DNA of 64,000 bases from a virus (taxonomy: Duplodnaviria > Heunggongvirae > Uroviricota > Caudoviricetes), in IMG/VR virus record IMGVR_UViG_2531839524_000004. The stretch is one strand, 5' to 3'. The position numbers and the translations under genes are program-made. Under the pieces are notes generated by a model. That model searched no databases. It was not told where the DNA came from and worked only from the letters and a program-made list of their open reading frames with translations. Shown one piece after another: positions 445 to 59,308 of the stretch. The first letter of the stretch is position 1, and the number at the start of each line of letters is the position of its first letter.

Positions 445-445
445 T

Positions 446-4380: not shown

Positions 4381-4484
4381 CACCACCAGAACAACTCCCT
4401 TCCGTTTCCACTTCCAAAAACTGCCACCAGTCGCTATCATCCGCTCATTGTGATAAGTAAGTAACTACCTACCAGGTGAGCCAC

Positions 4485-5225
4485 ATGAGCCAAATCTTTT
4501 TCGATACCATCGACAACGACCAGTACGACTTCATGACAGAGTGGAATACCGCTGTTATGGACAAGTGGGTCGCTGAAAACATTGGTTTGTCGCGCTGTAA
4601 AGACGAGGCTGAACTCTTCGAGACGAAGTGGTTTGATTACCGCGACATGCATCCTCTCATGGCCACCTGTCTTTTTACGGAGGCATACAAACGTCAGTAC
4701 TCAAATATCATGCTGACGCACGGTCGCGAACACTTTGAAACAGCTCCGTTCACCACCGGGTTAAAACGCCTGCCTTATCAGGAGTTGTCGACTGCCAATA
4801 AAACGTCGCTATGGAAAGCACGCCAGTTTGCGGATCGCTATTGCTGCTCATACGACTACTTTATCTCCACCGTTCTTTCCGCAGCTGCACGACGGCTGTG
4901 GGACAAGCTGCCGCGCCCACAGCATTTGTGGCAGCCAGAACTGATTGAGATATTTGAAGAGAAATTAGCCAGACGCGCAACAACCCGTCTGGATGACTCT
5001 CTGGTTAGCTTTAAGCATATGGGAGACATGCAGTTCAACCCGATTCAGGAAAGCTATTTTGAGTGGATTCTGGAGCGTTTGCGCACCATCCCTCGCAGCA
5101 AGCGCATACGCGCAATTTTCTCCGCTATCTGGCTAATGGAAATCGTTCCAGAGCGCCTTATTTCCGCCCACTTTCCAGAAGAACTGGAAGAAGCACGGCG
5201 GTTTATTGATCCCCTATCTAATTAA
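4485..5225 (+). CDS. hypothetical protein
   Basis: ORF with AGGTGA RBS 5 nt upstream of ATG 4485 (track ORF begins at in-frame GTG 4476). Confidence 0.5.
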   Translation: MSQIFFDTIDNDQYDFMTEWNTAVMDKWVAENIGLSRCKDEAELFETKWFDYRDMHPLMATCLFTEAYKRQYSNIMLTHGREHFETAPFTTGLKRLPYQELSTANKTSLWKARQFADRYCCSYDYFISTVLSAAARRLWDKLPRPQHLWQPELIEIFEEKLARRATTRLDDSLVSFKHMGDMQFNPIQESYFEWILERLRTIPRSKRIRAIFSAIWLMEIVPERLISAHFPEELEEARRFIDPLSN

Positions 5226-5268
5226 CTAATACTAGAAAACAATTTGTTTAAAAAACAAAGGAAAGCAC

Positions 5269-6609
5269 ATGACCGAACTTTGCCATACAGGACGCGGGCT
5301 GTCCGAAGAGTTTGATGAAGATTTCCAGAACAGACTGACGGCATATTTTTGTCGTGATCACGAGTTTCTTACTCGTGCGGGAGATCTGGTTGTGCCTAGC
5401 CAATTTGCCAATGCGGCCAATGCCATATTGGTTAATATGGTTTCGGGCTATTACCGTATGTACAAGAGCGCGCCCTCTTCATCTGCAATTCTGGATATGC
5501 TTAAGCGTGCGAAACGCGATAAGACTATCCGTGAGGAACTATTCGCCGATGTTGTTGCTGCGTTTAAGCGCATTCTTGCAGAAAAATTGTCCGATACCTC
5601 GTACATGGTTGACCAGGTATCAACCTTCGCAAAAAGTGTAGCGTTTGATGATGCTCTGATTAAGGCTGCTGAACTGAAAGAGAAAGGCGACTTTCACGGG
5701 GCGATGGCAATCATGGCCAAGGTTCAGCAGATTGGATCGAACGAAGCGACCGGAATCTATGACTACTACACCTCCGCAAGTGAGCGATTGAAAGCGCGTG
5801 AATATGAGGCTTCAGAGGAGTATGTACCAAACAGTATTACAACTGGACTCCCTCTTCTCGATAGGTTGCTGTACCAAAAAGGCTGGGCAAAGCGCGAAAT
5901 GGTGCTCTTCATGGGGTTCGCTAAATCCGGTAAATCGACCGCAATGGGTGAGTTTTCCATAAACGCAACACTTGCTGGCTACAATGTTCTGTATCTCTCG
6001 CTGGAGGTTCACACCACCATTTTATCCGACCGTTTTGATGCAAGATTGTCGGAGACGGAAATGTCCAAGTTGGTGGAACGGCGCGATGAAGTTCATCGCA
6101 AGTTGGCAGAGTTGGGAGCTACGAAGGGTATTGGTAGTTTGTGGGTTGTTGAGCGTCCGTCAGGAAGTATGTCACCGGCAGATCTGGACCGTATGCTTAA
6201 CAGCATGAAAGCCAACGGCATGGTGCCTGACATGGTTGTTGTCGACTACGCAGATTTGATGCGTGCCAGTTATGACCTTCGTGATGATCGCGCCAACATT
6301 CGTAGTATCTACACCGATTTACGTGCTCTTTATGACAAGCATAACGTTGCTGGGATCACGGCATCGCAGACAAACCGTGAAGGTGGCGCGTCAGAAGTTG
6401 CCACAATGATGCACGCTGCCGACAACATCGAAAAAGTACGTATTGCTGACCTGGTAATAACGATCAACAAAACCGAAGAAGAAGAAGCGAAAGGAGAGGC
6501 TCGTCTCTACTTTGCTGGTTCACGTAACCAGCAGGGAGGGATCAGCATTCGCGTTAAACAAAACCTCGAACAAATGCGCTTCATTGAGCGAATCTTAGAC
6601 GTTACCTAA
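5269..6609 (+). CDS. DnaB-like replicative DNA helicase
   Basis: 446 aa; C-terminal RecA-like domain with Walker A GFAKSGKST and DnaB-like architecture; conserved leader AAAGGAAAGCACATG. Confidence 0.8.
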   Translation: MTELCHTGRGLSEEFDEDFQNRLTAYFCRDHEFLTRAGDLVVPSQFANAANAILVNMVSGYYRMYKSAPSSSAILDMLKRAKRDKTIREELFADVVAAFKRILAEKLSDTSYMVDQVSTFAKSVAFDDALIKAAELKEKGDFHGAMAIMAKVQQIGSNEATGIYDYYTSASERLKAREYEASEEYVPNSITTGLPLLDRLLYQKGWAKREMVLFMGFAKSGKSTAMGEFSINATLAGYNVLYLSLEVHTTILSDRFDARLSETEMSKLVERRDEVHRKLAELGATKGIGSLWVVERPSGSMSPADLDRMLNSMKANGMVPDMVVVDYADLMRASYDLRDDRANIRSIYTDLRALYDKHNVAGITASQTNREGGASEVATMMHAADNIEKVRIADLVITINKTEEEEAKGEARLYFAGSRNQQGGISIRVKQNLEQMRFIERILDVT

Positions 6610-6690
6610 AAAATAAGCGTGGAGAACACCTCCACGCTTGATTCATTGGTGAAACAACTTTTCTTTTGCCAAACCACAAAAGAAAAACAC

Positions 6691-7872
6691 ATGAGCCTTT
6701 ATGTTATATCAACATTTAGGTTGGTCACAATATTGCCTGTTAAAAGTGGAATTATCGTGAGCGAGCTGAAAGAGCTAATTACCGAATTAGATTTTGAACA
6801 ATGGTTGGATACTGAAGGTATCGTTTATCGACGTGGAGGCGTGAGTACTCGCGGTCGTGAAGTGAATATCAAGGAGTGTCCGGTATGTGGCAGCTCCAAC
6901 TGGAAGGTATATTTCAATCTGACCAGTGGCGTCGGTAAATGCTTCGCTGGTGATCATCCCGAAGAGATTCAGTTCAATAAGCTGGTCTTCCTCAAGCACT
7001 ACAGCGGCAAATCACGACGACAGTTCGAGGAATATGTGCAGAACGCCCTTCTTTCCCAGGGGTGGGCACCAAAGAAAGAAGAGCTAGTGCTTGCAAGCAC
7101 AGTCGAGTTAGAGGGGCCAGTTGCACTCCCTCGTCATTACGAGCTTCCTATAGATGGTCGTCTTCCAGACTATCTGGTTGAACGAAACATATCGCCTGAA
7201 ATGGCAAAGTATTTTGACCTACGATACTGCGTCGAAGGCAAGCACGCCTATGTAGATCCGTATACAGATCAGGTTAAAGGACAGATATTCGATATGCGAA
7301 TACTGATACCGGTTTACGATCTGGATGGGGTAATGAAGACATTTCAGGGACGAGACATTACCGGTACAGCAGAACGTCGCTACCTCTTTCCTATGCAGCT
7401 TCCAGCTTCAGGTAAGTTTCTCTACAACGGCCATAATGCAGTCGGCAAACAGACGGTAGTTGTCTGTGAGGGGGCGTTCGATGTTATGGGGGTCAAACGA
7501 GCTATTTTTGACGAAGAAACATTACGTGATTACGTGGAACCAATAGGAACGTTCGGGATGCATCTATCTGGCAACACCACTCAGGATGCAGAAGATCAGC
7601 TGGGCGCGTTCCTGACGCTCAAGGCGCGTGGATTACGTAATGTGATCATGATGTGGGATAGTGAAAAGCAAGCTATACGCAACACTATGGCCGCAGCTAG
7701 GCGACTCACAAGTATTGGCCTTAATGTCAAAGTTGCGTGTTTGGGCGAGGAAGGACTCGACCCCGGCGATGCGACACCGGGGCAGATTATCAAAGCCTAC
7801 TATTGCGCAAAACCTTATTCACGACAGCTTGAACTCTTAAGCAAGGTGAAAGGCATTGCAGCACTAGTTTGA
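6691..7872 (+). CDS. DNA primase (zinc-ribbon plus TOPRIM)
   Basis: CPVCGS...C...H zinc-binding motif and TOPRIM-like VVVCEGAFDVMG; start chosen at ATG 6691 preceded by conserved AAAGAAAAACAC leader. Confidence 0.7.
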   Translation: MSLYVISTFRLVTILPVKSGIIVSELKELITELDFEQWLDTEGIVYRRGGVSTRGREVNIKECPVCGSSNWKVYFNLTSGVGKCFAGDHPEEIQFNKLVFLKHYSGKSRRQFEEYVQNALLSQGWAPKKEELVLASTVELEGPVALPRHYELPIDGRLPDYLVERNISPEMAKYFDLRYCVEGKHAYVDPYTDQVKGQIFDMRILIPVYDLDGVMKTFQGRDITGTAERRYLFPMQLPASGKFLYNGHNAVGKQTVVVCEGAFDVMGVKRAIFDEETLRDYVEPIGTFGMHLSGNTTQDAEDQLGAFLTLKARGLRNVIMMWDSEKQAIRNTMAAARRLTSIGLNVKVACLGEEGLDPGDATPGQIIKAYYCAKPYSRQLELLSKVKGIAALV

Positions 7873-8901
7873 ACCAGTATTAGTCACGTAAACATTGACC
7901 GAAAATGATTTAACTTCTGTGTTGAAGTTGTCAGTCATTACCGCGAGGTAGGCATTCTTGGTATCTCTGAATTGCTTCAGGATGATTTGAACGTTATCGG
8001 TGCAAACAAACGAGGTAGCCAGATTGCCTCCTTTCTCTGAAAAATCCTTTAGGAAAGTGCAGTCAATTTTGCCATCATTAGCGGTGAAGGTGGCATCATC
8101 ACCCTGCCAGGTAAATGTTGCGTTAACGCCTTTATCAATGGATTTAGCAATAAGTCGCTGAGTGGAGGATTTTGCTTTAGATCTTGCTGCTGATGGTTGG
8201 TATTTACCGCTTTCTTTTAGTTCTGCAATGTAATCACAGCCATTTTTATCTTCTTTATCGCAAGCTGCCTGATAAAGCTCAGCTGCTTTTTTATAATCTT
8301 TTTTAACCCCTTCACCATACTCATACATAATGCCAAGATTCGCCAATGCAGATGCACTGCCTAGTTCGATTCCTTTTTTATAATACTCTATTGCCTTTTT
8401 GTAGCTTTTTGGCACGCCTGCGCCAACATAATATAACTGTCCTAGATATGACGCAGATTCAGGGTCGCCAGCCTCTACTGCAAGTTTGTGATATTTCAGG
8501 GAAAGTTTTTGGTCTTTCTTACCCGCAAGTCCTTTATGATAAATAACACCCAGATTGTGATAAGAGTTGCCTCCAGCTGCATCACCAGCTTTCTTAAAGA
8601 GTTCCTCTGCCTTTTTGAAATTTTTATCAACCCCATACCCAAGGGCATACATTATACCTAGAGCATTAAACGCTTCTTTGTTCCCCTTAGAAGTCGCCAG
8701 TTCAAGCCATTTTCTGGCTTCATCGTAGTTTTTTTCGACACCATGAATACCTTTCATATAGTCGATACCTAAAGCACTCTGTGACTCAACGTCGCCTGCT
8801 TTTGCCGCATCGATCAGCTTTTGTATTTCATAGGCATGTGCACTCCCCGAAACAAGTAATAGCGACAACATAAAGAAAGATATTGGTTTGAAATGTTTCA
8901 T
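7864..8901 (-). CDS. secreted Sel1-like repeat (SLR/TPR-like) protein with extra C-terminal domain
   Basis: N-terminal signal peptide MKHFKPISFFMLSLLLVSGSAHA; multiple repeats with A-G-x-x-Y-x-x-G pattern typical of Sel1 repeats. Confidence 0.7.
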   Translation of the reverse strand: MKHFKPISFFMLSLLLVSGSAHAYEIQKLIDAAKAGDVESQSALGIDYMKGIHGVEKNYDEARKWLELATSKGNKEAFNALGIMYALGYGVDKNFKKAEELFKKAGDAAGGNSYHNLGVIYHKGLAGKKDQKLSLKYHKLAVEAGDPESASYLGQLYYVGAGVPKSYKKAIEYYKKGIELGSASALANLGIMYEYGEGVKKDYKKAAELYQAACDKEDKNGCDYIAELKESGKYQPSAARSKAKSSTQRLIAKSIDKGVNATFTWQGDDATFTANDGKIDCTFLKDFSEKGGNLATSFVCTDNVQIILKQFRDTKNAYLAVMTDNFNTEVKSFSVNVYVTNTGSN

Positions 8902-9082
8902 TTTTGGATTTTCACAAGATGGTTAGGTGGTTGTGGCTACTCGGTGTAAGGCTTTGTAATCACCGATTGGTAAGGTTACTTCAATTTAGCTTAACTGTCA
9001 GCATACCCAATCGCCGAAAAGATAAGTAGATGATTACTTATTAGTGTGTAAGAATACTGCCATCTGTTAGCTAGGAGTTGGT

Positions 9083-9865
9083 ATGAAAGAAGAAATTAAG
9101 AGATTAGCCTGCAACATCATTGATAAAACTGGTTTAGAAATCAGCGAGAGCAATCGGCTAGACATCATTGAAAAAGCCGTCAATACGGCAATGGATCATA
9201 TCGCCACTCGTTTGGTCGAGATCCCGCTACCGGGGCTACCTTATCTGAAGGTTAAGTTGCGCGTATGGGGCGAACCTGCACATGCACGACGTTCTGCATT
9301 AGTTGTTTTTGTACGCAAAGAAAACTTACGAACTCTAAAAGTGCAGGTTGGGGCGTGGTTTGATGGCAGAGTCATCTATACAGATACCATTATCTGTCCT
9401 CCAGGTGACGAACATATTGAAGCCGTCATTCGAGAATCAATTCGAGCTATGCGCAGTTTAGCTTTGCTGGAAGACAAGCAAAACTTTGAAGATTACTTGC
9501 TGTCGGTAAAAGCTGAACCAACATTGTCTCTGAAAGCCGATTTCGTCACCCCGACAAATCTGTTGGAGGTTTTGATTAATAAAGGGGCTAATGATGCTGT
9601 AAACCTAATCAGGGAAAGCGAATATTCGACTCTTTGCGACATGTGCAAAAGCCAGTTGGATCTGGTGCATATCGTTATTGATGCTGGGAAGGCATGTGAT
9701 GGCGTAATGGCTGAATTTGCTGGGAAGATGGTCAGGATTGCTAACGAATTACCGATGATAGAGCAAGAGGCCAAATCATACGCCACCAATCATGTCACAG
9801 AGCTTCTTGCCCCCTATCGCTTAGAAAGCGATCAGCGCAAGATGATTAGCTGGGGAAGTTGGTAA
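9083..9865 (+). CDS. hypothetical protein
   Basis: 260 aa ORF with AGGAG RBS. Confidence 0.5.
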   Translation: MKEEIKRLACNIIDKTGLEISESNRLDIIEKAVNTAMDHIATRLVEIPLPGLPYLKVKLRVWGEPAHARRSALVVFVRKENLRTLKVQVGAWFDGRVIYTDTIICPPGDEHIEAVIRESIRAMRSLALLEDKQNFEDYLLSVKAEPTLSLKADFVTPTNLLEVLINKGANDAVNLIRESEYSTLCDMCKSQLDLVHIVIDAGKACDGVMAEFAGKMVRIANELPMIEQEAKSYATNHVTELLAPYRLESDQRKMISWGSW

Positions 9866-9932
9866 GCTCTCTGTGTGTCGTTTTTTACGCAAATAATGAT
9901 AGGTAAGCACAAGATTATTTCTGGCGGTAATT

Positions 9933-10403
9933 GTGAAAGCTGATTTGTCAAAAATCCCTTCTATTTCAGGAAATAACGGTTATTCACTTCGTTGTGAGGA
10001 AGTAAAGATAAACGGTGAGTCGGCATATTGCAGCTATTCCGTTTGCCAGCACACCATTCTTGCCTTCAAAGAAAACCGTCTTCCTCGAACTTCTTTCCAG
10101 TCGTGCGCAACCGCTATCAAAGCAGGCAAATGCAAGGCGTTAAAAATGATGGTTGAAGAGATTCGTAAAGGAGAATCTCTGTATTTCGAAGATATGACCG
10201 CGCTCATTAAGGAGGTTGAAGAACGGAATAAACAAGCCAGAACTATAAAACGAAAACGTGACAGTGTAACGATTAATAGCATGGTTAAGAAGAGCACCAC
10301 ATCACAAACAGCGATCACTGACGTGTATGCGGCGTTGCTTGAAGAAACAACAAAAGAAACACATGAGCAAATCGATCAACATATGGAGGCAAAACAACAA
10401 TGA
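9933..10403 (+). CDS. hypothetical Cys-rich protein
   Basis: ORF overlapping ligase start; several N-terminal cysteines; start codon uncertain (GTG in track). Confidence 0.4.
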   Translation: MKADLSKIPSISGNNGYSLRCEEVKINGESAYCSYSVCQHTILAFKENRLPRTSFQSCATAIKAGKCKALKMMVEEIRKGESLYFEDMTALIKEVEERNKQARTIKRKRDSVTINSMVKKSTTSQTAITDVYAALLEETTKETHEQIDQHMEAKQQ

Positions 10404-11722
10404 AAAAGTTGATCGCACTTAAGCATAAGCTGGACGAAATGAAAGCTATGGGAACCAATGCAAAAAAAGAGGCATTGGCCAACATGGATGACTTCGAGCA
10501 AAGCATGGTTTCATTGATGCTCAACCCTTTCATCCGTTTTGGGGTAAAGAAATACAAAGTGGCAGAGCCGCTTAGTGAGTCCGTCCCAAGTGACGAAAAA
10601 GCCATTGATATACTGAATAAGCTGGCCTCTCGCGAGCTGACGGGGAACGCAGCAATAGCTGCTGTTGAGTCTATCGTGGCGTCAATGTGCGCCGATGGGC
10701 AGGACGTGTTCCGTCGTTTCCTCTTAAAAGATCCGAAAGCTGGCGTTGGGATTAGCCTATGTAACAAGGTTTTTGAAAATCCCATTCCGAAATTCGAGGT
10801 GCAGCTGGCGTCACCGTATAAAGAAAAAGGCGACAAATACCCCTTCAAGCCAAATCCTAAAGCCAAATGGCCGATGATTGGCAGTCTTAAGCTCGATGGT
10901 TTGCGAGTAATTTGCGAGGTTATTGTTGACGAGGAAGAGGTTAACTTCCTTTCTCGTACTGGTAATCCAATCACGTCTCTCGATCACCTAAAGCCAGCCA
11001 TGCTCGAATTAGGCAAACTTTCAGGCCACAAACACATCTTCTTCGATGGTGAAGGAACTGCCGGTTCATTTAACCAGTCCGTATCTGCATTGCGCAAAAA
11101 GAACGTGCAGGCAATTGGCGCTATTTATCATGTTTTCGACTTCTTCCTACCGGAATGGCGAGCACAGGCTAAATCCAAAGAGTATGCAAAGACAGGTATG
11201 AAGCTGAAAGAGCGCCTGGCTATGCTGGTGGCGTTGTTCAAAAACGATCGCAGTGAAGGCTACACACAAGACATTCACCTGCATCCGTTCTATATCATCC
11301 ATAGCCACGAAGACTTCATCGAACGCTTCATGAAACGCCTGGACGATAACGAAGAAGGGGAGATGGGCAAAGATCCGAACTCTGTTTACGAGTTTAAACG
11401 TACCCGCAGCTGGTGGAAGTTAAAAGACGAAGATTCAGAAGATGGTGAAATTATCGACTTTGAGCCGGGCGACCCGGACTCTGGTTTTGCCAACACACTT
11501 GGAAAAATTGTTATTCGTCTTGAAAACGGCGTCATCGTTCGTGCGAGCGGTATTAAGCATAAATATCTGGACGAGATCTGGAACAACAAAGAGAAGTACC
11601 GTGGTCGTATTGTTGAGGTTCATTGTCACGAGAAAACACCGGATGGCAGCTTACGCCACCCCCGACTGAAATGGCCGCGTTGCTTACGCGATACAGAAGA
11701 TCGAATCGGAGATAAAGAATGA
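10400..11722 (+). CDS. ATP-dependent DNA ligase
   Basis: Adenylation motif I KLDGLR (KxDGxR) in PMIGSLKLDGLRV; length about 440 aa. Confidence 0.8.
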   Translation: MKKLIALKHKLDEMKAMGTNAKKEALANMDDFEQSMVSLMLNPFIRFGVKKYKVAEPLSESVPSDEKAIDILNKLASRELTGNAAIAAVESIVASMCADGQDVFRRFLLKDPKAGVGISLCNKVFENPIPKFEVQLASPYKEKGDKYPFKPNPKAKWPMIGSLKLDGLRVICEVIVDEEEVNFLSRTGNPITSLDHLKPAMLELGKLSGHKHIFFDGEGTAGSFNQSVSALRKKNVQAIGAIYHVFDFFLPEWRAQAKSKEYAKTGMKLKERLAMLVALFKNDRSEGYTQDIHLHPFYIIHSHEDFIERFMKRLDDNEEGEMGKDPNSVYEFKRTRSWWKLKDEDSEDGEIIDFEPGDPDSGFANTLGKIVIRLENGVIVRASGIKHKYLDEIWNNKEKYRGRIVEVHCHEKTPDGSLRHPRLKWPRCLRDTEDRIGDKE

Positions 11723-11898
11723 TGCTCGGCTGGATGATTGCATTTTTAGCAGTTGGGTTTTTCATAGGTATTGTGGTGATGTCCAGTTGCATCAATGACT
11801 ACATTAAAAGCGGTGTTATAGAAAGACGCGGTCGTATTTATCGCATTGTAGAAATAACCAACACCCTGAAGGAGATTAAGGATGATCGTATTAAGTAA
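11719..11898 (+). CDS. small membrane protein (59 aa), first of tandem paralogs
   Basis: ATG overlaps ligase stop (ATGA); N-terminal TM helix then GRIYRIVE motif shared with 12094..12246; below the ORF-track size cutoff. Confidence 0.45.
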   Translation: MMLGWMIAFLAVGFFIGIVVMSSCINDYIKSGVIERRGRIYRIVEITNTLKEIKDDRIK

Positions 11899-12097
11899 AC
11901 GGGAGAAGGAAACGCTTCATGAAATCAGTAAGTGGCCGGAGTTCCCTGAGTACTGGAAGCCTAAAACGCGAGCTAAGTTAGAGCGTTTAGGGTTGGTTGC
12001 AAACGTTTCTGAAACGTGGTGTTCGGCCAACTACCAGTTAACTGATAAAGGGAAAGTATTGCTACAGCAATTAGTAGAATCAGGAGTGTTAAAATGA
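11882..12097 (+). CDS. hypothetical protein
   Basis: 71 aa ORF, translationally coupled to flanking small genes. Confidence 0.4.
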   Translation: MIVLSKREKETLHEISKWPEFPEYWKPKTRAKLERLGLVANVSETWCSANYQLTDKGKVLLQQLVESGVLK

Positions 12098-50986: not shown

Positions 50987-51101
50987 AAGAACAGTAGCCT
51001 TTCAATCATTTCCTGCCTGTATTTAATACTTTTCCGCCTGATAGGTTTAGTCAAAATGCAGCCATCGAAACGCAAATGTAACCAAACAGAAGGAGACTTA
51101 C

Positions 51102-51911
51102 ATGAGTTCGGTTGAAAATGTAATGACAAATGATGATCTGGACGAGCTGACAGCCATGTTGCAATCACTTGATGAACCAGTAAAAAAAGCTGCACAGGTT
51201 GAAAATACTGATGATATTGACGATCTGCTGCTCGGCCTAGATGCTGGCGTAGCCATGAGTTCTGATGATGTTGCCGAAGAACTGTTCAATGAAGAAAAAG
51301 CAGGTGATTTCAGCTCTGCTTTAAATGAGTTGGAGTTAGCGCATGAGCCTATAAACGTAATTAACGCTGAAAGTGTTGAAGCTGCCGAAAACGAGCCAGA
51401 ACAATTGGGATTTATTGAGGTTGAAGAGTGTGTTGAGGTTAATGATGAATTAAAAGTTCAACAGTCAAATGATAGCAATACAAATAAAAAAGCTCGTACT
51501 GCAAGAGGTCCTCGTTTTACTTTAAGTGATAAAGATGATTCGTTTTTCAATAAAGCGGGCTTAGAAAAAGATATTTTCTTAGACGCTTACGATAACGCGC
51601 CTGTCAAAGCAAAGGATAAGATATTAAACCTTCTTAATTGGTTTAGCGGAGGTCCAGATATTAGTGTTTACACGGTAATTTCCATGAGACACCTTCTCAC
51701 AGAAAAGAAGGCTACAAGTAATAGTATTAAGATTGCTTTAATGAGCAATCCAGAAAAACCGTATCCGCTTAATACTGCGTCAACTCAGGCTGGGCAAATG
51801 ATGGCTGTATTTCCAGCGACAGGAATTGCCGTTAGAGACGGTGGAAATCTAACATTGAACGAAGAATCACCGATCGTTAAGAAGTTTGTCGCGGAGTACA
51901 CTATTGGATGA
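51102..51911 (+). CDS. hypothetical acidic protein
   Basis: 269 aa; highly acidic N-terminal half; GGAGA RBS. Confidence 0.5.
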   Translation: MSSVENVMTNDDLDELTAMLQSLDEPVKKAAQVENTDDIDDLLLGLDAGVAMSSDDVAEELFNEEKAGDFSSALNELELAHEPINVINAESVEAAENEPEQLGFIEVEECVEVNDELKVQQSNDSNTNKKARTARGPRFTLSDKDDSFFNKAGLEKDIFLDAYDNAPVKAKDKILNLLNWFSGGPDISVYTVISMRHLLTEKKATSNSIKIALMSNPEKPYPLNTASTQAGQMMAVFPATGIAVRDGGNLTLNEESPIVKKFVAEYTIG

Positions 51912-52094
51912 CGTTCCCCTACTTAAAATAAAGCCCATAGAGAGCTTTATAGTACTGGGTAAGCCAATCACATACCCAGCACCACAAAAACGCGCCAGAG
52001 AGCTTCTCGTTTGCATTTCTGGCGCGTTTTATTTGATTGCCAGACATAAAATCAAATGCAAAAATAGGTATATACTTACCTATCGAGAAAGAAG

Positions 52095-52688
52095 ATGATT
52101 GCAGCCGAAAAAATCAAACAGCGAAAGCGCGACAACTCTCTTCGTGACCTCTGGAGAACACCTGACTGGCTGTTTTCTGCCATTCAACGTTATCTTGGAG
52201 TGACATTTGATGTTGACGTTGCCTGCAACAAGGACAATGCAAAGCTGCCTAATTTCATAGGCGTTGAGCGTGATGCTTTGAAATCTGAATGGGGACAGCC
52301 AGGTACAATTGCCTTCCTCAATCCACCCTACTCCAAAATCTCCCCCTGGATTGATGCGGCTATACGTGAGCAGGCTCCCGGAGTTACAACAGTGATGCTA
52401 ATTCCTCAATCCCTAGATACAAAGTGGTATGAGCGTGCAACAGAGTGTGCGAATGAGACGATTATTCTGTCTGGTGGCCGCGTAGCGTTTGTCGAGCCTG
52501 ACGTAAATCTGGGTCAGGTAGAAGTAAACATCAACCCAGGTGGCAGTATGCTCGTTGTTTTTCGAGGATTCTGTCAGGACGCTGGGCACTCTATAAGCAA
52601 GATCCCTTTGGACGTCATGAAAAGTCTGGGAGGGTATGATCCTGCGAATGTGATCAGGAAAAAAAGACCATCAAAGAAGGCTGCTTAG
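52095..52688 (+). CDS. phage-type N6-adenine DNA methyltransferase (Dam-like)
   Basis: Catalytic motif FLNPPYS (DPPY/NPPY class) and small size (197 aa) typical of phage Dam family. Confidence 0.7.
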   Translation: MIAAEKIKQRKRDNSLRDLWRTPDWLFSAIQRYLGVTFDVDVACNKDNAKLPNFIGVERDALKSEWGQPGTIAFLNPPYSKISPWIDAAIREQAPGVTTVMLIPQSLDTKWYERATECANETIILSGGRVAFVEPDVNLGQVEVNINPGGSMLVVFRGFCQDAGHSISKIPLDVMKSLGGYDPANVIRKKRPSKKAA

Positions 52689-52708
52689 TTTGTTCTGGTG
52701 TCTGTAAT

Positions 52709-52768
52709 TAGCCTGCTTCTGTATATATAAATAACTACATATTAATTATTAATATACGGAAGAAGGCT
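52709..52768. repeat. second copy of AT-rich palindromic element
   Basis: AGCCTGCTTCTGTATATATAAATAA identical to 4320..4344; partner arm TTAATATACGGAAGAAGGCTG degenerate. Confidence 0.55.
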
Positions 52769-52873
52769 GTTTTGTATCAGAGACTCCAGACCTGAACATC
52801 ACTACAGAATCCACTAGAACCCCTTCCCAGACGCTTTAAAATCGATTTTATGAACCACTTTAAGGAAACCAAC

Positions 52874-53104
52874 ATGTCATACCCGACTAATGTCGTTGCG
52901 CTCGTAGAGAGCGATTTTCTGGCCCAGGCTCGTGAAATGATGAAAGATCGTGAGCAGGCTTTCAACTTGTACGAATGGGCAATTAAGTGCTTGCATCTTG
53001 GCGAGCATCGCGAACTTGTTGAACAGCTTTTAGGTGAGTTGATCAATGAGGTGTTTGCCTTGAATGTTCAACTACATGGTAGAGAAAATAATCAATCACA
53101 ATGA
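52874..53104 (+). CDS. hypothetical small protein
   Basis: 76 aa from ATG 52874 with AAGGAAACC RBS. Confidence 0.35.
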   Translation: MSYPTNVVALVESDFLAQAREMMKDREQAFNLYEWAIKCLHLGEHRELVEQLLGELINEVFALNVQLHGRENNQSQ

Positions 53105-53686
53105 TAGATAAGTACAAACTATTCATAAAGTGAATTGTAAGTGCTAAGATCTGATAGTTTCCAGTCGTAGACTGGAGACTCGACCTGATGGGTGGGGGTA
53201 AGCGTCACTGGCGTCAGGTTTAAAAAAGCTCACTACCAGCGTAGAACTGGTGCCGTTTAGGTGTCGGGGAAGGGGGAACCAAAGTGAGCAGAGACAAGGG
53301 TCACTTTATGATTGTCGAGTCTGGGGTGTTTCGAGAGGTTGAATCCAGTACTCCCCTTCATAAAGTGTGGGAAGATCTCGGTTCTGGGGTGCTGTCATCC
53401 ATAACTTCCCAAGTCTAAGCTGGCAGTAGACTTAGACCATAACTTTTCAGGTTATGAAACGACCAGGTTGGTGAGAGATTTTTATACTCACCTCCCTGGG
53501 AGAGTATTACCTGAAAAGACAACCTCTCACTTCGTTCGAGGTGAACTTCACTCACTTCGTTCGTTCAGTTCAGGTTTATAAAAACCTGTTCTGGGAAGTA
53601 ATTTGTTTATTTTAATAATTATTAACACGCACGCGTGTGCGCACGCGCGAGGAAAAATCGGCGCGGCGCTTGATTCAGGAGTTTAT

Positions 53687-54277
53687 ATGACGACGAAGAC
53701 ACCAGCCCGATCGCAAGCAAAAACTCGCAAAAAAGCCAAAAACAAAAATTCCCCCCGCACCAATCCCACAACGCCTGTCGTAGAGTTCAATCCCCAGCTT
53801 AAAACCGTGAAAATCTTTAGTGATGGCTCTTGCCTTAAAAATCCGGGTGGCCCGGGCGGTTACGGTATCGTTCTCCAGTATCGTGGTGAGGAACGCGAGT
53901 TCTCAGATGGTTTTCATAGCACCACCAATAACCGCATGGAGATGATGGGGGCACTTATCGGGCTGGAGCGTTTGAAATATCCATGCAACGTTATTTTGCA
54001 CTCTGATAGCCAGTATCTGAAAAACGGCATGACACAGTGGATGAAATGGTGGAAACGCAATGGATGGATGACTTCTGACAAAAAACCGGTAAAGAATGTT
54101 GATCTGTGGAAGCGTCTGGATGAGGCCGCAAGTCGACATAATGTTCGCTGGAAGTGGGTTAAAGGCCACGCCGGGCATCGTGAGAATGAAATATGCGATC
54201 GACTCGCGAAGATCGCAGCTTTTTCAGCAGCAGATATGCCTCACAAGAAAGATATTGGTTTTGTTTATAATAAGTAG
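53687..54277 (+). CDS. rnhA: ribonuclease HI with basic N-terminal extension
   Basis: [57 protein letters not shown] closely match RNase HI. Confidence 0.85.
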
Positions 54278-54425
54278 TAAGTAAGTGTTTACCTATCATT
54301 TTAAATCATGTATCTTATCGGCGTCAGGATGACAATGTGTCGGTAAGACACAGTTCCAGGATGGAACGAGAAAGGCGGCTGGCAATCGCCAGCCGCAACT
54401 CTTTCTGACACTGGATGGGGTCCAC

Positions 54426-54920
54426 ATGGCACGTCAAACCTATTTCACTTCTGCAACTAAACGTCCTCGTTCTTTACGTCAAATTTTGGCCGAATTATTT
54501 AGCGGTCGTGTTATGTCACGTCTTGATGAACTAGAGACTACCGTTCGGTTGCTGAATGAACGTTTAGATAATCAAGCGTCAGTTGTTGCGAACGTGGGGG
54601 CGATTGTTGCCTCTGGTTCTTCACGCGAAGCGAAAAGTACACGGCCTTTAGTGAAGGAGAAAAACAACAAGGACAGTTCGAATGGAAAATTTTCAAAGAA
54701 AGAGGCTGAAACCAATGGCCTACGTTCTCATTATAGTTTCACTGGCGACGGTAGCCGTTCCAGCCGGCCAGAGCCTTTTGATGCCGGATTCATCCATCAC
54801 CACACCTTCGTCGACGACAATTACCACCACTCCAGTGGAGCGTCCTGTCACTCTGGATGGGATGGCGGTGGATGCGATACCTCAAGTTCATCCAGTTACT
54901 CAGGATCATGCTGTGACTAA
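54426..54920 (+). CDS. hypothetical protein; 3' half frame-ambiguous with overlapping ORF 54715..54933
   Basis: N-terminal 85 aa look protein-like; C-terminal low-complexity Ser/Cys/Gly tail overlaps an alternative frame encoding a signal-peptide-like protein. Confidence 0.3.
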   Translation: MARQTYFTSATKRPRSLRQILAELFSGRVMSRLDELETTVRLLNERLDNQASVVANVGAIVASGSSREAKSTRPLVKEKNNKDSSNGKFSKKEAETNGLRSHYSFTGDGSRSSRPEPFDAGFIHHHTFVDDNYHHSSGASCHSGWDGGGCDTSSSSSYSGSCCD

Positions 54921-54929
54921 GGCGGTTGT

Positions 54930-55118
54930 ATGAACTGGTTTTCAAATCACTTTGGAAAAATTTGGCTGGCAATTCTTGCCCTTATGGTCGCCGGTTGGGT
55001 ATCGAACATTATAAAACTTGTTTGCTCTGGCGATCTCCAGTTTCAGGCTGGCATGACCTTGGCTCGTGTAGTTGGGATTTTTGTTTTTCCAGTTGGTTCG
55101 GTACTTGGTTATTTCTGA
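54930..55118 (+). CDS. small two-helix membrane protein
   Basis: 62 aa, two hydrophobic helices; ATGA overlap with upstream frame. Confidence 0.4.
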   Translation: MNWFSNHFGKIWLAILALMVAGWVSNIIKLVCSGDLQFQAGMTLARVVGIFVFPVGSVLGYF

Positions 55119-55211
55119 CGGCTGTTAGTGCATATGCATTGACCATCTCTGCGTAAGCAATTTATGTAATTAGAAAACAACTTGTTTTGACAAATAATAA
55201 AAGGAAAGCAC

Positions 55212-55637
55212 ATGTTAGGTTTCTTCAAAAAGAAAACTCGTAAAGCTGTTATCGAAGTCAAAAAAATGGAGAACCGTGATGCGGTTGAGGCCACCGTGTG
55301 GGGCGCGTACATGATCTCCTATGCCGACGGCACATGTGACGCAAAAGAAATTGCCATTCTTGAGAAGACAATTGCAGCTCTGCCTGCGTTTTCTCCGTTT
55401 GCTGGTGAAATTGCCCAAATGAGCGCCAATATCCGTGCTCGTTACGAAGCGTCCCCTCGTTCTGCTAATGCACAGGCTATTCGTGAGCTGTCTGATATTG
55501 CGGGTACTCCAGAGGCGGTCGATGTTCTGTGTCTGTGCCTTGATATTGCCGATCAGGACGGCATTGGTGAACAAGAAGAGCAGGCACTGAAAAAGATCGC
55601 CCAGGCGCTTCAGTTGTCACTGGATGCTTATCTCTAA
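55212..55637 (+). CDS. TerB-like domain protein
   Basis: By-eye resemblance to TerB tellurite-resistance domain (SYADGTCDAKEIAILE...DIADQDGIGEQEEQALKKIA); conserved leader upstream. Confidence 0.5.
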   Translation: MLGFFKKKTRKAVIEVKKMENRDAVEATVWGAYMISYADGTCDAKEIAILEKTIAALPAFSPFAGEIAQMSANIRARYEASPRSANAQAIRELSDIAGTPEAVDVLCLCLDIADQDGIGEQEEQALKKIAQALQLSLDAYL

Positions 55638-55796
55638 TGCTTGAGAGATTCCGGCTTGTGATCGTCATTGCTCTTCTGGTGATGGCGGGGTTGGTGGATT
55701 TTACGGGAAAGATGATGTCTGTCATTTCTGATGGCGTCCTCATTGGTTTGGCGATCTACTTCGCTTATCCGTTAGTTCGTAAAGCAAAGTGTTAAT
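55638..55796 (+). CDS. small membrane peptide (52 aa)
   Basis: ATG overlaps TerB-like stop (TAATG); hydrophobic sequence; followed by strong terminator; not in ORF track (under 60 aa). Confidence 0.4.
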
Positions 55797-55798
55797 GA

Positions 55799-55828
55799 CA
55801 AGGGCCAAATGGCCCTTGTGTTTCGTTG
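55799..55828 (+). terminator. rho-independent terminator
   Basis: ACAAGGGCC-aaat-GGCCCTTGT followed by GTTTCGTT. Confidence 0.7.
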
Positions 55829-55934
55829 ACCGAAATAGAGAGTTTGCACCTTTACGTTTAGCTTGCTCCCCTTTTATGCCACATCACAATAAAGCCAATA
55901 AGAAAACAACTTGTTTAAGCATTAGGAAAAACAC

Positions 55935-56504
55935 ATGTGCAAGAAATGCAAAGCGATAGCTGATGAACAAAACGCCTTATTCGAAGAAATGGATGCTAAT
56001 GAACTGGTCAAAATGTTAGCCATTCTTCGAGGAATAGAAGACGTTTCCATATTTGAGAGAGTGGTTACAGCACTTAATTTTGAGTCCACCTTTGAAGAGC
56101 CAACTCAGGTTGTAGCTTTAGCACATCATTTCGGTGTTCATTATCTTGCTGAAAAAGAGCGCGCTGATAAGTTGCAGGCGACTTTGGATATGGTGAGCGA
56201 GACTCAACGAACTGATGACACTAACAAGAGTGAGGCGATTATTGCCAGCAAAGATCGTGAAATTGCTGGGCTTAAATCCTCTCTAACGATGTTGATGTCT
56301 GCGTTCAATCTTATGTCTTCTCAGGCGGGTTATAAAATGCCATCACTAAACAGCGATGATCCGATGGCCGTTCGTCAGCTTTTGGGAGCAATGGCCGACC
56401 AACTCGACGACACAAAGAGTCGGCTTGAAGACATGATGCGTGAGTTAAGCCATCGACATAACCTCGCAACACAGCCACACAAAGCCTTTCAAAGCTCTAA
56501 TTGA
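55935..56504 (+). CDS. hypothetical protein
   Basis: 189 aa; conserved leader GGAAAAACACATG. Confidence 0.5.
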   Translation: MCKKCKAIADEQNALFEEMDANELVKMLAILRGIEDVSIFERVVTALNFESTFEEPTQVVALAHHFGVHYLAEKERADKLQATLDMVSETQRTDDTNKSEAIIASKDREIAGLKSSLTMLMSAFNLMSSQAGYKMPSLNSDDPMAVRQLLGAMADQLDDTKSRLEDMMRELSHRHNLATQPHKAFQSSN

Positions 56505-56559
56505 TCTGATATGGCCGCATGATCGGCCATATTGTGTTGATAAAAAACAAGGATGAAAA

Positions 56560-56841
56560 ATGGCATACGGTACAGGGATTTACAACAATAAAGGAATTAA
56601 CGTTACTGGCTTCCTTACTCCTATTTTTTTTCTTGATCGATTTACTGCGTCATCAGGCTCTAAGACGTACTCCAATCCGCCACCGGGTAAATCGCTACAT
56701 GCCGTGTGGTCATTGATGCCTCTTAACAACGACAACTACATTAATTTACCTGTTCCAACAGTTACTATTAATGGAAATACGGTTAGTTGGTCAAATTTAT
56801 ATACGGGGCTTGGTTCTTACATATACACATACTGGGGATAA
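56560..56841 (+). CDS. hypothetical protein (AT-rich cassette)
   Basis: 93 aa; Gly/Asn/Thr/Tyr-rich. Confidence 0.4.
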   Translation: MAYGTGIYNNKGINVTGFLTPIFFLDRFTASSGSKTYSNPPPGKSLHAVWSLMPLNNDNYINLPVPTVTINGNTVSWSNLYTGLGSYIYTYWG

Positions 56842-56843
56842 TT

Positions 56844-57458
56844 ATGTTCGGGATGTCAATTACTCAATCAGATGGAAGTTTGTGGATGAGTCCAGAATTT
56901 ACTCCGCAAAATCTGATTAATAAAGGGACAATGTCTACATCTAAAGGTTCTGTTTTTCAAACATCAATCCCATCAAACAAATCATGCTTTTTCTTCATAA
57001 AAAGCAGTAATAAGGCGAACATGATGTTTATTCATGAGCATAGTAACGGATACAATGCTCTCAGATTGCATCAGGTAAATGGTAGCCCCGGAACAATAAC
57101 AGTTTATGCTTTTTCTGATATGGTGTTACCACATTCTGGCTATGGCATTGCCATGTATAACAGCGCAGGCGCAATGGTGTATCACGGTGAGATGATGCCC
57201 CTTGATGCGAAACTTATCACTATTTCGGACCCTCAATTTACCATAGATGTGGGGTATCCGTGTGCGGTAATGCCTGCTATGGTTGGGGTTTATAACTATA
57301 GACGAACCGATTACGACAGACCTGTCTATGTAACTATGACCGGTGCAACTGGAAACCAAGTATATAACGGTCAATGGTATTCCGGTAATGTCACATGGGA
57401 TATTAAGAAGATTTATACAAACAAAATCCTGGTTATAAATACCTCAAAGTATGATTAG
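56844..57458 (+). CDS. hypothetical protein (AT-rich cassette)
   Basis: ATG 56844 directly after upstream stop; 204 aa; Gly/Asn/Tyr-rich. Confidence 0.45.
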   Translation: MFGMSITQSDGSLWMSPEFTPQNLINKGTMSTSKGSVFQTSIPSNKSCFFFIKSSNKANMMFIHEHSNGYNALRLHQVNGSPGTITVYAFSDMVLPHSGYGIAMYNSAGAMVYHGEMMPLDAKLITISDPQFTIDVGYPCAVMPAMVGVYNYRRTDYDRPVYVTMTGATGNQVYNGQWYSGNVTWDIKKIYTNKILVINTSKYD

Positions 57459-57561
57459 CAAATACCTTTATTTAAAGGATTGCCTGTTAATTTCTATTTA
57501 GCACCTTTTCATTTTTGAAATAATTGCACCATTAAACAAATCTTTTCTTAATGGTGCAATT

Positions 57562-59247
57562 ATGAATACAGCTCTTTCCATCATCGACGATGCCAACTCA
57601 AACACTGCTATCGATTATCGTCAGGAAATGAACGTCATCCACGAAATTGTGGCCGAGTGCGAGAAGGAGATCGCCTTCATGTATCAGGTTCACGACTTCG
57701 TTTATGGAGACGAACGCCACAACATGATTAATCGCCTGCTGCAACTGAACCACCGACCAGATGAAGAACGCTCACGTTTGAATCGAGCTTGGCTGGATAA
57801 AGTCGATCTGGAATGGGTGAAACAGAATATTTGGGCCGAGTACTGGAGGAAGGTCACGGATATGACTAACGTTCTGCTGATCATGCCAGCTTCCCGTCGC
57901 GACGAGTGGCGTGAGCAGTTTATCGAGGGTAAGCAGGAAGTCATCAAAACTGACAGAACCGGCTATCAGATGAAGGTAAAAGAGTTCGTTGGTGTACCGG
58001 AGTTCAAAGCAGAAACGGTCATACCCACGATGCTTAATTTGCTGAATGACAGGCACAAATATCTCTCTGAGCGCGTGTATGGCTTGTTTAAGGCGCTGAG
58101 TCCTGCGCACAAGACAAATAAGACAAACGGTTTCAGCGAACGTCTGATAATCGCTGACTGCATTTCTGATTTCTGGCGGGACAGCGTTAGTGTGAACTAT
58201 CGCAAAGAGGACTATATCGACGATCTGCGTGTCTTGCTTCATTTCTTCGCGCACAAAGAATTTATTACCATCAACCGCACTGCTGAGGTGCTATCAGCTG
58301 CGTATCGGGCAAACGACTGCCGGACCGGTGACTGGATGAACGTCGATGGAAATCTGATGCGCGTGAAGATGTTCAAGAACGGCAACGTTCACTTTGAAAT
58401 ACATCCTGACGTGGCCTGGAAGTTGAATGAGGGGCTGGCTTACAGTATGCCTGCTGCAATCCCCGCGCCATGTCGCACCGCGCCAAAAACACGGGCACCA
58501 AAGCAGTTCGGGTTAATCCAGAAGACGATCTCCGTGCCGGTTCGCACTGCGCTTCGTGACGGGCGATTGAGCAAAGACAAAGGCGTATGGTACTTCTCTG
58601 ATTCAGCTCTCCAGAAGTCGCAGGTGGAAGAGCTTGAGCGCACACTGAGCTTCATTGGCGGCGTGCAGGAGAAAAAGCACTGGCAGTTCCCGTATGACAT
58701 CGTCCATACGCTAAATACGATTGTGGCTACCGGTTTAATACCGGATACAAAATCACACCAGTTCTACCCTCCCCCACGCTTGATTGCTGAGTACGTTGCC
58801 AGAGCCACTGAATTGAAGTCTGGTGAGAAGCTGCTGGAGCCTCAAGCCGGACGTGGGGATCTTCTGGCCTATATTAACGCCGATCTGGAAGATGTTACCT
58901 GCATAGAAATCGCACCTCTCTTCGCTGATATCCTGCGTGGAAAAGGGTATACGAACACGATTTGCTGCGACTTCATAAAGTGGTCTGAGGACAACGTAGG
59001 TTATCAGTTCGACAAAATCGTTATGAACCCGCCGTATTCGCTTGGTCGTCATAGAGAGCACACGCTGGCTGCGCTGGGGCATCTGAAAGTCGGCGGGCGT
59101 CTTGTAGCAGTATTGCCGGGCACTGCGCCAATACTGGACTGGATGACGATGGATAATTACGTTTATGCCAGAGGGAAGTCGTTTACCAACGAGTTTGAAG
59201 ACACAGGGATCACAGTCAGCGTATACGTTTTCAAACGCGTTAAATGA
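57562..59247 (+). CDS. large protein with C-terminal amino-methyltransferase domain (gamma-class, NPPY)
   Basis: C-terminal motif I-like LLEPQAGRGDLL and motif IV IVMNPPYS; N-terminal about 400 aa without recognisable motifs. Confidence 0.65.
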   Translation: MNTALSIIDDANSNTAIDYRQEMNVIHEIVAECEKEIAFMYQVHDFVYGDERHNMINRLLQLNHRPDEERSRLNRAWLDKVDLEWVKQNIWAEYWRKVTDMTNVLLIMPASRRDEWREQFIEGKQEVIKTDRTGYQMKVKEFVGVPEFKAETVIPTMLNLLNDRHKYLSERVYGLFKALSPAHKTNKTNGFSERLIIADCISDFWRDSVSVNYRKEDYIDDLRVLLHFFAHKEFITINRTAEVLSAAYRANDCRTGDWMNVDGNLMRVKMFKNGNVHFEIHPDVAWKLNEGLAYSMPAAIPAPCRTAPKTRAPKQFGLIQKTISVPVRTALRDGRLSKDKGVWYFSDSALQKSQVEELERTLSFIGGVQEKKHWQFPYDIVHTLNTIVATGLIPDTKSHQFYPPPRLIAEYVARATELKSGEKLLEPQAGRGDLLAYINADLEDVTCIEIAPLFADILRGKGYTNTICCDFIKWSEDNVGYQFDKIVMNPPYSLGRHREHTLAALGHLKVGGRLVAVLPGTAPILDWMTMDNYVYARGKSFTNEFEDTGITVSVYVFKRVK

Positions 59248-59308
59248 TAGGTAAATACTTACCTAATTTGTGTAAGAATGTAGTTACTAAACGATAAGAG
59301 AAAAACAC

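Follow-up and report, generated by a model that had tools for sequence, protein, structure and literature searches.

The plasmid prophage P1 is governed by one repressor, C1, whose operators are scattered over ~100 kb, many of them overlapping promoters, and whose own gene is under operator control. In the temperate mycobacteriophage L5, some 20-30 copies of the stoperators of gp71 occupy short intergenic gaps in both early and late operons and are taken to silence the whole prophage. P22 Arc at the Pant promoter and the LexA boxes exemplify palindromic operators that sit between the -35 and -10 hexamers or cover them, and the KorA and KorB operators of RK2 are repeated across the plasmid backbone as a global regulon. 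Here we describe a repeat reminiscent of all these systems in 64,000 nucleotides of the Caudoviricetes record IMGVR_UViG_2531839524_000004 (the window, that is, the whole stretch of DNA analysed). It is a 22-bp palindrome that recurs at gene boundaries and that is probably the operator of a repressor encoded by the element itself, likely a protein of the XRE family, acting on the promoters of nearly all lytic gene blocks.

The C1 operators of P1 and the stoperators of L5 appear to be the closest analogues, with Arc at Pant and the LexA boxes the best parallels for geometry. However, C1 binds to asymmetric 17-mers in P1 as a monomer of 283 aa, whereas the sites found here are 22-bp palindromes and the candidate binder is a 128-aa helix-turn-helix (HTH) protein; in addition, the late genes of P1 are controlled indirectly via Lpa, whereas copies of this palindrome lie inside the virion and lysis operon. 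The stoperator-like spread is evident, with 21-24 copies per genome in short intergenic gaps of early and late operons, but L5 stoperators are asymmetric 13-mers in one orientation that act on elongation, whereas a sizeable fraction of the present sites lies inside predicted core promoters. We rejected an L5-type stoperator on orientation, as the site is palindromic and not asymmetric with a fixed orientation. Arc, LexA and KorA/KorB belong to other protein families (ribbon-helix-helix, LexA and ParB-like, respectively), whereas the predicted fold of the candidate resembles XRE or Cro/C1-type repressors (434 Cro, P22 c2, SinR, C.BclI, HigA and SPC32H Rep). We found no published account of the motif or of the lysogeny circuit of the SSU5 group in the searchable literature, reviews of phage-plasmids included.

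The open reading frames of the window encode, among others, a DnaB-like helicase, an ATP-dependent ligase, CobT/CobS-like proteins, the DNA polymerase III alpha subunit, SbcCD, a class Ia ribonucleotide reductase and a Rep3-type initiator. By gene content and similarity, the window belongs to an Escherichia coli phage-plasmid of the SSU5/pHCM2 supergroup (group names as in PMC7969092) and represents the half that serves replication, maintenance and nucleotide metabolism. A 9-kb test stretch (17000-26000) aligned over ~90% of its length, at ~95% identity, with the Escherichia phages CMS-2020a, PhiR41_1 and Cyrano (pLF82); it was 84% identical to SSU5 and, over about half its length, 79% identical to Klebsiella phage-plasmids. 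More than 1,300 PLSDB records match the window, mostly non-mobilizable plasmids of ~110 kb. In E. coli, Klebsiella, Salmonella Typhi (pHCM2), Enterobacter and Yersinia pestis (pMT1), phage-plasmids of the SSU5 type rank among the most frequent large plasmids that are non-mobilizable, and they also bear resistance genes. A defined operator with a candidate repressor would provide the regulon and promoter map of this family, and the pair would offer a direct handle for inducing or curing SSU5-like plasmids. A repressor regulon is an ordinary kind of finding, the value of which is practical and comparative rather than conceptual.

The original prediction, made from the letters alone, had described a palindrome ATAAGTA-(N)-TACTTAT recurring at eleven gene boundaries. 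The recurrence is real, and the motif is present at all 11 coordinates, far above what shuffles and simulations yield, but alignment of the sites shows that the actual unit is a 22-bp palindrome with the half-sites (A/G)ATA(A/G)GTAAGT and ACTTAC(C/T)TAT(C/T), that is, GATAAGTAAGT and ACTTACTTATC on either side of the centre. Its ATARGTA arms are usually 6 bp apart, the palindrome is preceded by A-rich and followed by T-rich sequence, and each half-site consists of tandem tetranucleotides, AAGT AAGT. The strict pattern ATAAGTA-N0-12-TACTTAT, submitted to the shuffled-sequence check that had been proposed with the motif, has 4 matches in the window and 0 in 100 dinucleotide shuffles. A symmetrised position weight matrix, trained on the window sites alone and with strong sites defined as those of at least 22 bits, recovers 13 strong sites, to which two variants (20121 and 17464) are to be added. 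First-order Markov simulations of the window gave 0.085 matches at 13 bits or more, and 22 bits was not reached once in 500 simulations at intergenic composition (59% AT). Copies at 15428, 34321 and 47224 had been overlooked, as had the core-only copy at 17464. The site at 30285 fits the strict pattern with a 2-bp spacer, but when read four bases upstream (30280) it is an ordinary 22-bp site of 26.5 bits, and it was counted as strong. The putative operator copies of the window are the following (no strand is assigned to the palindromes; scores are those of the weight matrix).

4452..4473: GATAAGTAAGTAACTACCTACC, 26.5 bits; the ATG that opens the helicase/primase block follows after 11 nt.
9021..9042: GATAAGTAGATGATTACTTATT, exact pattern, 25.2 bits; covers the -35 region of a promoter whose -10 is TG-extended, TGTAAGAAT.
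12543..12564: GATAAGTATTTACTTACTTATC, exact pattern, 30.2 bits; precedes a conserved 750-nt non-coding region and the tRNA cluster.
15428..15449: GATAAGTATGCACATACCTATC, 28.8 bits; 13 nt 3' of the predicted promoter TTGATC-16-TATAAT (15388-15415).
17464..17477: core-only copy, GGTAAGTGCTTACC; lies around +1 of TTTACA-16-TAATAT (minus strand, 17506-17479), the promoter predicted for the candidate repressor gene.
20121..20138: short-spacer variant, GATAAGTAACTACTTATC, exact pattern with arms 2 bp apart, only 8.5 bits in the 22-bp register; between the cobT-like and AAA/dnaE genes.
26760..26781: 26.6 bits; in the spacer of the predicted promoter TAGATA-17-TATCAT (26755-26783), preceding a gp32-like SSB gene.
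30280..30301: 26.5 bits; in the spacer of the predicted promoter TTGAAA-17-TATTAT (30275-30303), directly after a canonical terminator (30245-30265).
34321..34342: TATAAGTTAGTATCTACCTATC, 23.3 bits; abuts the ATG of a small open reading frame.
37828..37849: AATAGGTATATACTTACTTATA, 27.0 bits; precedes the SbcD/SbcC genes, with a -10-like TATATT at +29 that lacks TG.
42512..42533: GATAGGTAAGTGCTTATCTATT, 29.1 bits; precedes nrdA, with a promoter-scan match TTGATA-17-TAACAT (42510-42538), and is followed by a canonical terminator hairpin (42539-42560).
47224..47245: AATGAATAAGTGATTACTTATC, 22.4 bits; precedes thyX.
52063..52084: AATAGGTATATACTTACCTATC, 30.2 bits; 10 nt before the ATG of an adenine-methyltransferase gene.
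54276..54297: AGTAAGTAAGTGTTTACCTATC, 26.9 bits; overlaps the upstream stop codon.
59246..59267: GATAGGTAAATACTTACCTAAT, 27.6 bits; covers the -35 region of a promoter whose -10 is TG-extended, TGTAAGAAT.

The palindrome is deeply conserved. The matrix trained on the window found 24 copies in the whole genome of Cyrano, 22 in SSU5 and 21 in the Klebsiella element pJN2-26, mostly at orthologous gene boundaries. Site 4452 has counterparts at the orthologous place in all three (Cyrano 31295, SSU5 33599, pJN2 74982), as do site 37828 and site 47224 (Cyrano 72594, SSU5 72510, pJN2 9788), and the orthologues of site 54276 in SSU5 (79903) and pJN2 (16841) reach 32.5 bits. Sites 9021 and 59246 are each conserved together with TGTAAGAAT in Cyrano and SSU5, site 12543 is an invariant block in a four-genome alignment, and at site 52063 the spacing of 10-11 nt to the ATG has been kept in three lineages though the intervening bases differ. 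The core copy at 17464 is conserved with its flanks in pJN2-26 (GGTAAGTACTTACCGATATTACA) despite diverged neighbouring sequence. In the virion and lysis operon, one copy separates terL from the portal gene and another falls within the 3' end of the latter; further copies follow the capsid gene and precede the genes for the tail tube and the holin, and the motif is thus not specific to early genes. Scans of IMG/VR with the core recovered Klebsiella-type contigs and many contigs of 55-65% GC, up to 120 kb long, which share no more than 37-50% identity with SSU5 in their helicase, primase, capsid, terminase and ParB-like proteins; the same AT-rich palindrome has been kept in them, and 133 of their 134 distinct sites are intergenic. 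As side observations, the copy at the 3' end of the portal gene, outside the window, is strong and carries TTGAAA-17-TATCAT in all three complete relatives; a degenerate palindrome of 14.8 bits at 18790-18811, inside the cobT-like gene (17996..20104), scores higher at the orthologous position in SSU5 (43660, 18.4 bits) and Klebsiella (91931, 26.2 bits); and a scan of genome contigs with the 18-mer TAAGTAAGNNCTTACTTA gave single copies in many unrelated genomes, in roughly the number expected by chance, with a conspicuous excess of Pyrinomonadaceae and Blastocatellia (Acidobacteriota) assemblies.

The GC-rich relatives are informative about the relation of the palindrome to promoters because AT-rich promoter hexamers stand out from their background. 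We oriented their sites by the flanking genes and examined the 87 co-directional ones. TTG at -5 from the motif occurs on the gene strand in 18 of these 87 and on the other strand in only one (p = 8e-5), and all 18 TTG-bearing sites have TAnnnT, mostly TACAAT or TATAAT, at motif positions 19-24. In this class-I geometry the palindrome is the exact 17-bp spacer of a near-consensus sigma70 promoter (TTGcaa-17-TAcaAT). In a second arrangement, the -35 stands at -27 and the -10 (TATTGT) at -3, which puts the palindrome on top of the start site; in a third, the -10 stands at -10 (10:1 by strand). An independent consensus scan of the window placed promoters on sites 26760, 30280, 34321 (TTTACA-17-TAGTAT and TTTATA-16-TATCAT) and 42512, and just upstream of 15428 and of 52063, the latter immediately 3' of TTGCCA-17-AAAAAT (with TG; scan match 52037-52065); it also found the promoter of the candidate repressor gene, with the core palindrome at ~+1. 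Sites 9021 and 59246 are each followed, after 6-7 nt, by a TG-extended -10 element, with the hexamer AAGAAT and its TG at +29 and +28 from the motif start, respectively. Site 20121 has a TG-extended -10 element (TGGTATATT, read from the sequence) ~10 nt downstream, and site 12543 a -10-like TAAGAT at +31, without TG. At site 4452 the closest -10-like hexamer, a TATCAT, begins 17 nt before the motif, and the site would thus fall just 3' of the start point. A search for -35- and -10-like elements around site 47224 predicted no promoter. Overall, predicted promoters lie on or adjoin 13 of the 14 full-length window sites, these being consensus matches to which the motif itself supplies part of the -10. 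The predicted operator centres in the window cluster at about -30, -20, +1 and +15, which in bacterial promoters are positions of repression and not of activation, and such variable geometry is typical of repressor boxes, for instance LexA sites. Taken together, it seems quite likely that the palindrome is a protein-binding operator at promoters, and likely, if with somewhat less confidence, that it mediates repression.

The element encodes a plausible binder for such an operator:

17046..17432, minus strand: XRE-family HTH protein of 128 aa, candidate palindrome-binding repressor.

This protein has a weak match to Pfam HTH_19, below the curated cutoff (E = 7.8e-4; 19.7 bits against 30.2), and belongs to PHROG 8 (transcriptional regulator). 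In its AlphaFold model the mean confidence (predicted local distance difference test, pLDDT) is 72.5 for the whole chain and ~85-88 over residues 11-80, the DNA-binding domain, with helices at 12-23, 28-34 and 41-47. Foldseek matches to the PDB were weak (none at E <= 0.001, the best at 6.4e-3), the top-ranked being mostly of XRE type (SinR, C.BclI, HigA, a Salmonella phage repressor, 434 Cro and P22 c2), and a sequence search of the PDB gave no match. According to the model, the product is an XRE (Cro/C1-type) HTH regulator with a lambda-repressor-like fold. Like SPC32H Rep, it lacks an S24 peptidase domain, and induction would therefore need an antirepressor or similar factor; SSU5 encodes Ant and Cyrano a separate S24 peptidase. 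The operator differs from typical XRE-type sites in its length (22 bp against 14-18 bp) and in the tandem tetranucleotides of each half.

Homologues of the XRE gene adjoin an integrase gene in 865 plasmids of the SSU5/pHCM2 family, including pHCM2 and Y. pestis pMT1, and each GC-rich lineage that was checked for the gene has one. Around the XRE gene of four GC-rich lineages, three operators stand within ~900 bp, at -138, +470 and +750 from the gene start, and form the densest cluster of those loci; the right arm of the upstream one incorporates TTGAC. The conserved core copy of E. coli and Klebsiella sits at +1 of the predicted promoter of the gene. Acinetobacter relatives (AB group) have the palindrome AATCAGTCAGTACTGACTGATT in place of AATAAGTAAGTACTTACTTATT, an A-to-C change (AAGT to CAGT) in both tetranucleotide repeats of each half-site. 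The A. baumannii plasmid p107.0Kbp (L173) carries ten variant copies in 34 kb (sites 2955-31977), three of them between the XRE gene and the cobT-like block, clustered beside the gene within ~900 bp as in the GC-rich lineages. The recognition helix of the Acinetobacter XRE protein starts with GFKRPNVLSMIK, against G(Y/F)KN(A/P/Q)N in the enteric and GC-rich lineages (KN to KR), and a change of Asn to Arg together with A:T to C:G agrees with the usual preferences of amino acids for bases. This covariation of helix and operator suggestively links the XRE protein to the motif and makes the Acinetobacter variant a testable case of repressor-operator co-evolution. On such circumstantial grounds, the HTH regulator that the original prediction had named is indeed the best candidate, and on balance we favour it as the binder of the palindrome.

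In SSU5, a plaque-forming isolate, the integrase-XRE module is absent and the 22 sites have been kept, which is consistent with SSU5 being a repressor-less lytic derivative. In comparison with pHCM2 (L175) and with window positions 13900-17900, the whole phoH/gp49/glutaredoxin/integrase/XRE module is missing in SSU5 (L005, 41776-42761); in pHCM2 and in the E. coli and Klebsiella elements it sits between the tRNA region and cobT. A match of the XRE protein to a Thauera plasmid was discarded, as this is an unrelated conjugative plasmid, and a profile search of genome contigs with the alignment of GC-rich XRE proteins found no relative.

Expression in the plasmid state can be read from the RNA-seq data of a Cyrano lysogen (PMC9928086, table S1). 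The first genes after the sites are at background, with a median of 8.4 against 9.7 overall. CYRAN_45, which is 100% identical to the XRE protein of the window, has a value of 96 against a background of 9.8. The genes expressed in the lysogen and devoid of the motif comprise toxin-antitoxin modules, the parA block (2354..3381 in the window, where there is no copy of the palindrome), repA, CYRAN_43 and CYRAN_45. In the 6-h macrophage samples, expression steps up by +2.5 to +3.9 log2 at 4 of the 17 motif junctions (33->34, 11->12, 55->56 and 59->60), two of which are orthologous to window sites, 55->56 to site 30280 (+3.6 log2) and 59->60 to site 34321 (+3.9 log2). The lysogen values fit a repressor operator; the steps are only suggestive.

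We propose that a dimeric or higher-order repressor encoded by the phage-plasmid binds the palindrome at ~15 places in the window (21-24 per genome), on or beside sigma70-type promoters heading forward-strand blocks of genes for replication, recombination and nucleotide metabolism and, outside the window, of virion and lysis genes. The palindrome would occupy the 17-bp spacer between -35 and -10, where its last four bases plus AT form the -10, or lie over the -35 region of promoters with a TG-extended -10, or over the start site. Every one of these placements would block RNA polymerase, so that occupancy in the plasmid state would silence the lytic programme at some twenty promoters and loss of the repressor would free them; the XRE repressor would be autoregulated through the operator core at +1 of its own promoter, and copies 0-15 nt from a start codon, and these only, may act as roadblocks. 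A bolder extension, which we offer tentatively and think possible rather than probable, is that one XRE repressor directly gates essentially all lytic units of the SSU5/pHCM2/pMT1/pKpn phage-plasmids at ~20-25 host-type promoters, in a 'flat', cascade-free switch whose operator is conserved from enterobacteria to environmental relatives with 60% GC and was re-coded in Acinetobacter through the change from Asn to Arg in the recognition helix, with A-to-C as its counterpart in the two repeats of every half-site.

Several observations weigh against a repressor operator at promoters, or against the XRE protein as its ligand. The promoter calls are consensus matches, fewer than in shuffles in each of three 20-kb segments (window 1..60000), and part of the -10 is supplied by the motif itself. 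For about half of the GC-rich sites no promoter geometry could be assigned, and 22 GC-rich sites lie between genes called convergent (crude gene calls), where no promoter is expected. Several late-operon sites are 0-15 nt from the next ATG, for which a roadblock fits better than a promoter. Expression steps of at least +2 log2 occur at 4 of 17 motif junctions against 6 of 82 others, which is not significant (Fisher p = 0.07; rank p = 0.70). The covariation of helix and operator is a single evolutionary event, and A-to-C changes at two positions 4 bp apart in each half-site are not obviously explained by one HTH per half-site.

Other explanations could account for parts of these data. The palindrome could act as an RNA hairpin, whether a weak terminator, a site for RNase III or other processing, or the target of an RNA-binding regulator: many copies begin -5 to +12 nt from the upstream stop codon between their A-rich and T-rich flanks, and the element encodes a FljA-like protein with an Hfq-like region. 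This is nonetheless very improbable. Across 60 enteric and 79 GC-rich unique sites, Watson-Crick complementarity at the variable pairs (1-22, 2-21, 5-18, 10-13 and 11-12) did not exceed that of shuffled partners (P >= 0.19); A.C or G.T combinations at pair 5-18 have been retained at orthologous sites across lineages, and the central six bases vary freely among orthologues without pairing being kept. The predicted hairpins of ten sites have only -1.8 to -8.3 kcal/mol, two of the ten being no better than shuffles, and their AT-rich stems reach at most ~11 bp. At the gathering threshold, Rfam detected only tRNAs in the whole window and never the palindrome. Moreover, a class-I site would lie upstream of the start point and so remain untranscribed from its own promoter. 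The lack of covariation and the weakness of the hairpins thus argue for a protein-binding DNA site, and two independently conserved half-sites point to a symmetric DNA-binding protein. We accordingly discarded an intrinsic terminator (the stems are weak, the T-rich flank is mirrored by an A-rich one, and the terminator scan never calls the palindrome although it calls the genuine GC-rich hairpins that adjoin several copies) as well as an RNase III-type or other structured RNA element. A role of the DNA site in genome maintenance, as a centromere-like or KorB/ParB-type loading site for the two proteins with ParB-N domains or as a recombination hot spot in the manner of T4-type PeSL cassettes, is somewhat less remote but still improbable. 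A copy stands just upstream of the ParB-like operon in E. coli (Cyrano 105106), Klebsiella (pJN2 34778) and a distant relative (L022, 855), dispersed palindromic partition or regulator sites exist in N15 and RK2, and variable modules often adjoin sites, for example the gene 7864..8901 beside site 9021. However, the genes with Pfam ParB-N domains, CYRAN_119 and CYRAN_120, have values of 5.0 and 9.5 in the lysogen against the background of 9.8, and being at background in the plasmid state they would have no role in plasmid partition; for the same lack of expression we rejected the ParB-like proteins as the lysogenic silencing factor, despite the copy before their operon in all lineages. The parA block lacks the palindrome, and the strand-specific -35 beside the sites points to transcription.

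Within transcription, the palindrome might define an element-specific promoter class at which a dimeric phage activator, or a factor that appropriates sigma, recruits host RNA polymerase, in the manner of MotA at -30 of the middle promoters of T4; the silence of the lysogen would then reflect the absence of the activator, and the silence of the genes after the sites fits either model. Many enteric copies do combine a poor -35 with a usable -10 (TATCAT or TATTAT at 19-24, or a TG-extended -10 downstream), and the family has T4-like replication genes. Yet the class-I promoters of the GC-rich relatives are near consensus and would need no activator, sites also lie over the start site and at +5 to +27, where activators fail, a perfect palindrome is directionless while transcription is one-way, and one copy is at +1 of the repressor gene that the lysogen expresses, all of which makes an activator unlikely. 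A MotA-type box in the strict sense was rejected, as the position is not fixed (about -30, -20, +1 and +15) and a good -35 stands beside the site in the GC-rich relatives. Of the three functions that the original prediction had considered, a shared operator for one DNA-binding regulator is thus the best supported; the idea of a promoter class is right in that the palindrome is embedded in sigma70-type promoters, in the spacer, over the -35 or over the start site, but the palindrome is no new promoter type itself, and the proposal of an RNA-processing site is not supported by the structural evidence above. An operator of the same kind might alternatively be bound by another protein of the element, the XRE protein controlling something else. 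The candidates are a homologue of the FljA 'repressor of phase-1 flagellin' (CYRAN_114 family), the 92-aa CYRAN_117 and a winged-helix-like protein encoded before terS. SSU5, which lacks the XRE gene, keeps all sites and all these other candidates, CYRAN_117 has a lysogen expression of 114, and the AAGT AAGT tandem of each half-site would suit a ribbon-helix-helix tetramer. On the other hand, CYRAN_117 lacks a significant match in Pfam, none of the candidates, CYRAN_114 and CYRAN_117 included, gave a match in the 695 kb from GC-rich relatives, expression of the winged-helix-like protein stays at background in the lysogen, and neither operator clustering nor covariation was seen for any of them. 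We regard such a binder as rather unlikely, though a shade less so than an activator. The palindrome may also resemble the operator of P22 Arc, which likewise lies between -35 and -10. A host transcription factor was also rejected. The palindrome bears no convincing likeness to the consensus sites of CRP, FNR, Fur, LexA, ArgR, TyrR, TrpR, MetJ, PurR, NagC, DeoR, NrdR, DnaA and MqsA, having only the GATAA/TTATC ends in common with the Fur box, and in Acinetobacter the operator has changed in step with a phage protein, which also speaks against a universal host factor.

The region downstream of site 12543 has features of its own. Between this site and the tRNA cluster, ~750 nt (12565-13311) are devoid of open reading frames and contain long invariant blocks shared by the E. 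coli, SSU5 (Salmonella) and Klebsiella elements. Their consensus fold has 179 pairs with long-range closing helices, and 22 pairs show compensatory changes, in three effective lineages only; a comparison with Rfam gave no match even at E <= 1. The region looks like an undescribed large structured RNA that would be transcribed from a motif-controlled promoter. The adjoining cluster (13312-13862) comprises four tRNA genes (Asn, Tyr, Thr and Ser), whereas Cyrano has those for Asn, Thr and Ser, and SSU5 and pJN2-26 only that for Asn, so that tRNA content is variable within the family.

A long palindrome at 4320-4380 had been thought to share the core of the operator, but the two have only the hexamer ATAAGT in common, the arms there are 1 bp apart, and it belongs to a separate repeat family, TAGCCTGCTTCTGTATATATAAATAA...TATATACGGAAG(CAG), a long palindrome containing TATAAATA that occurs at 4312-4366 and 52716-52770 of the window. 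In the relatives, a third member of this family closely precedes the gene of the small terminase (Cyrano 108346, SSU5 103267, pJN2 38537). Finally, at least 12 iteron-like copies of (T/C)ACCGCTGACAGCATAC, at 35113-35649 and 36760-36865, flank the Rep3-type initiator gene (35646..36860, minus strand), and three repeats of the GGATCTATC type lie at 36922-36965; the iteron-like repeats around the initiator gene presumably mark the plasmid origin.

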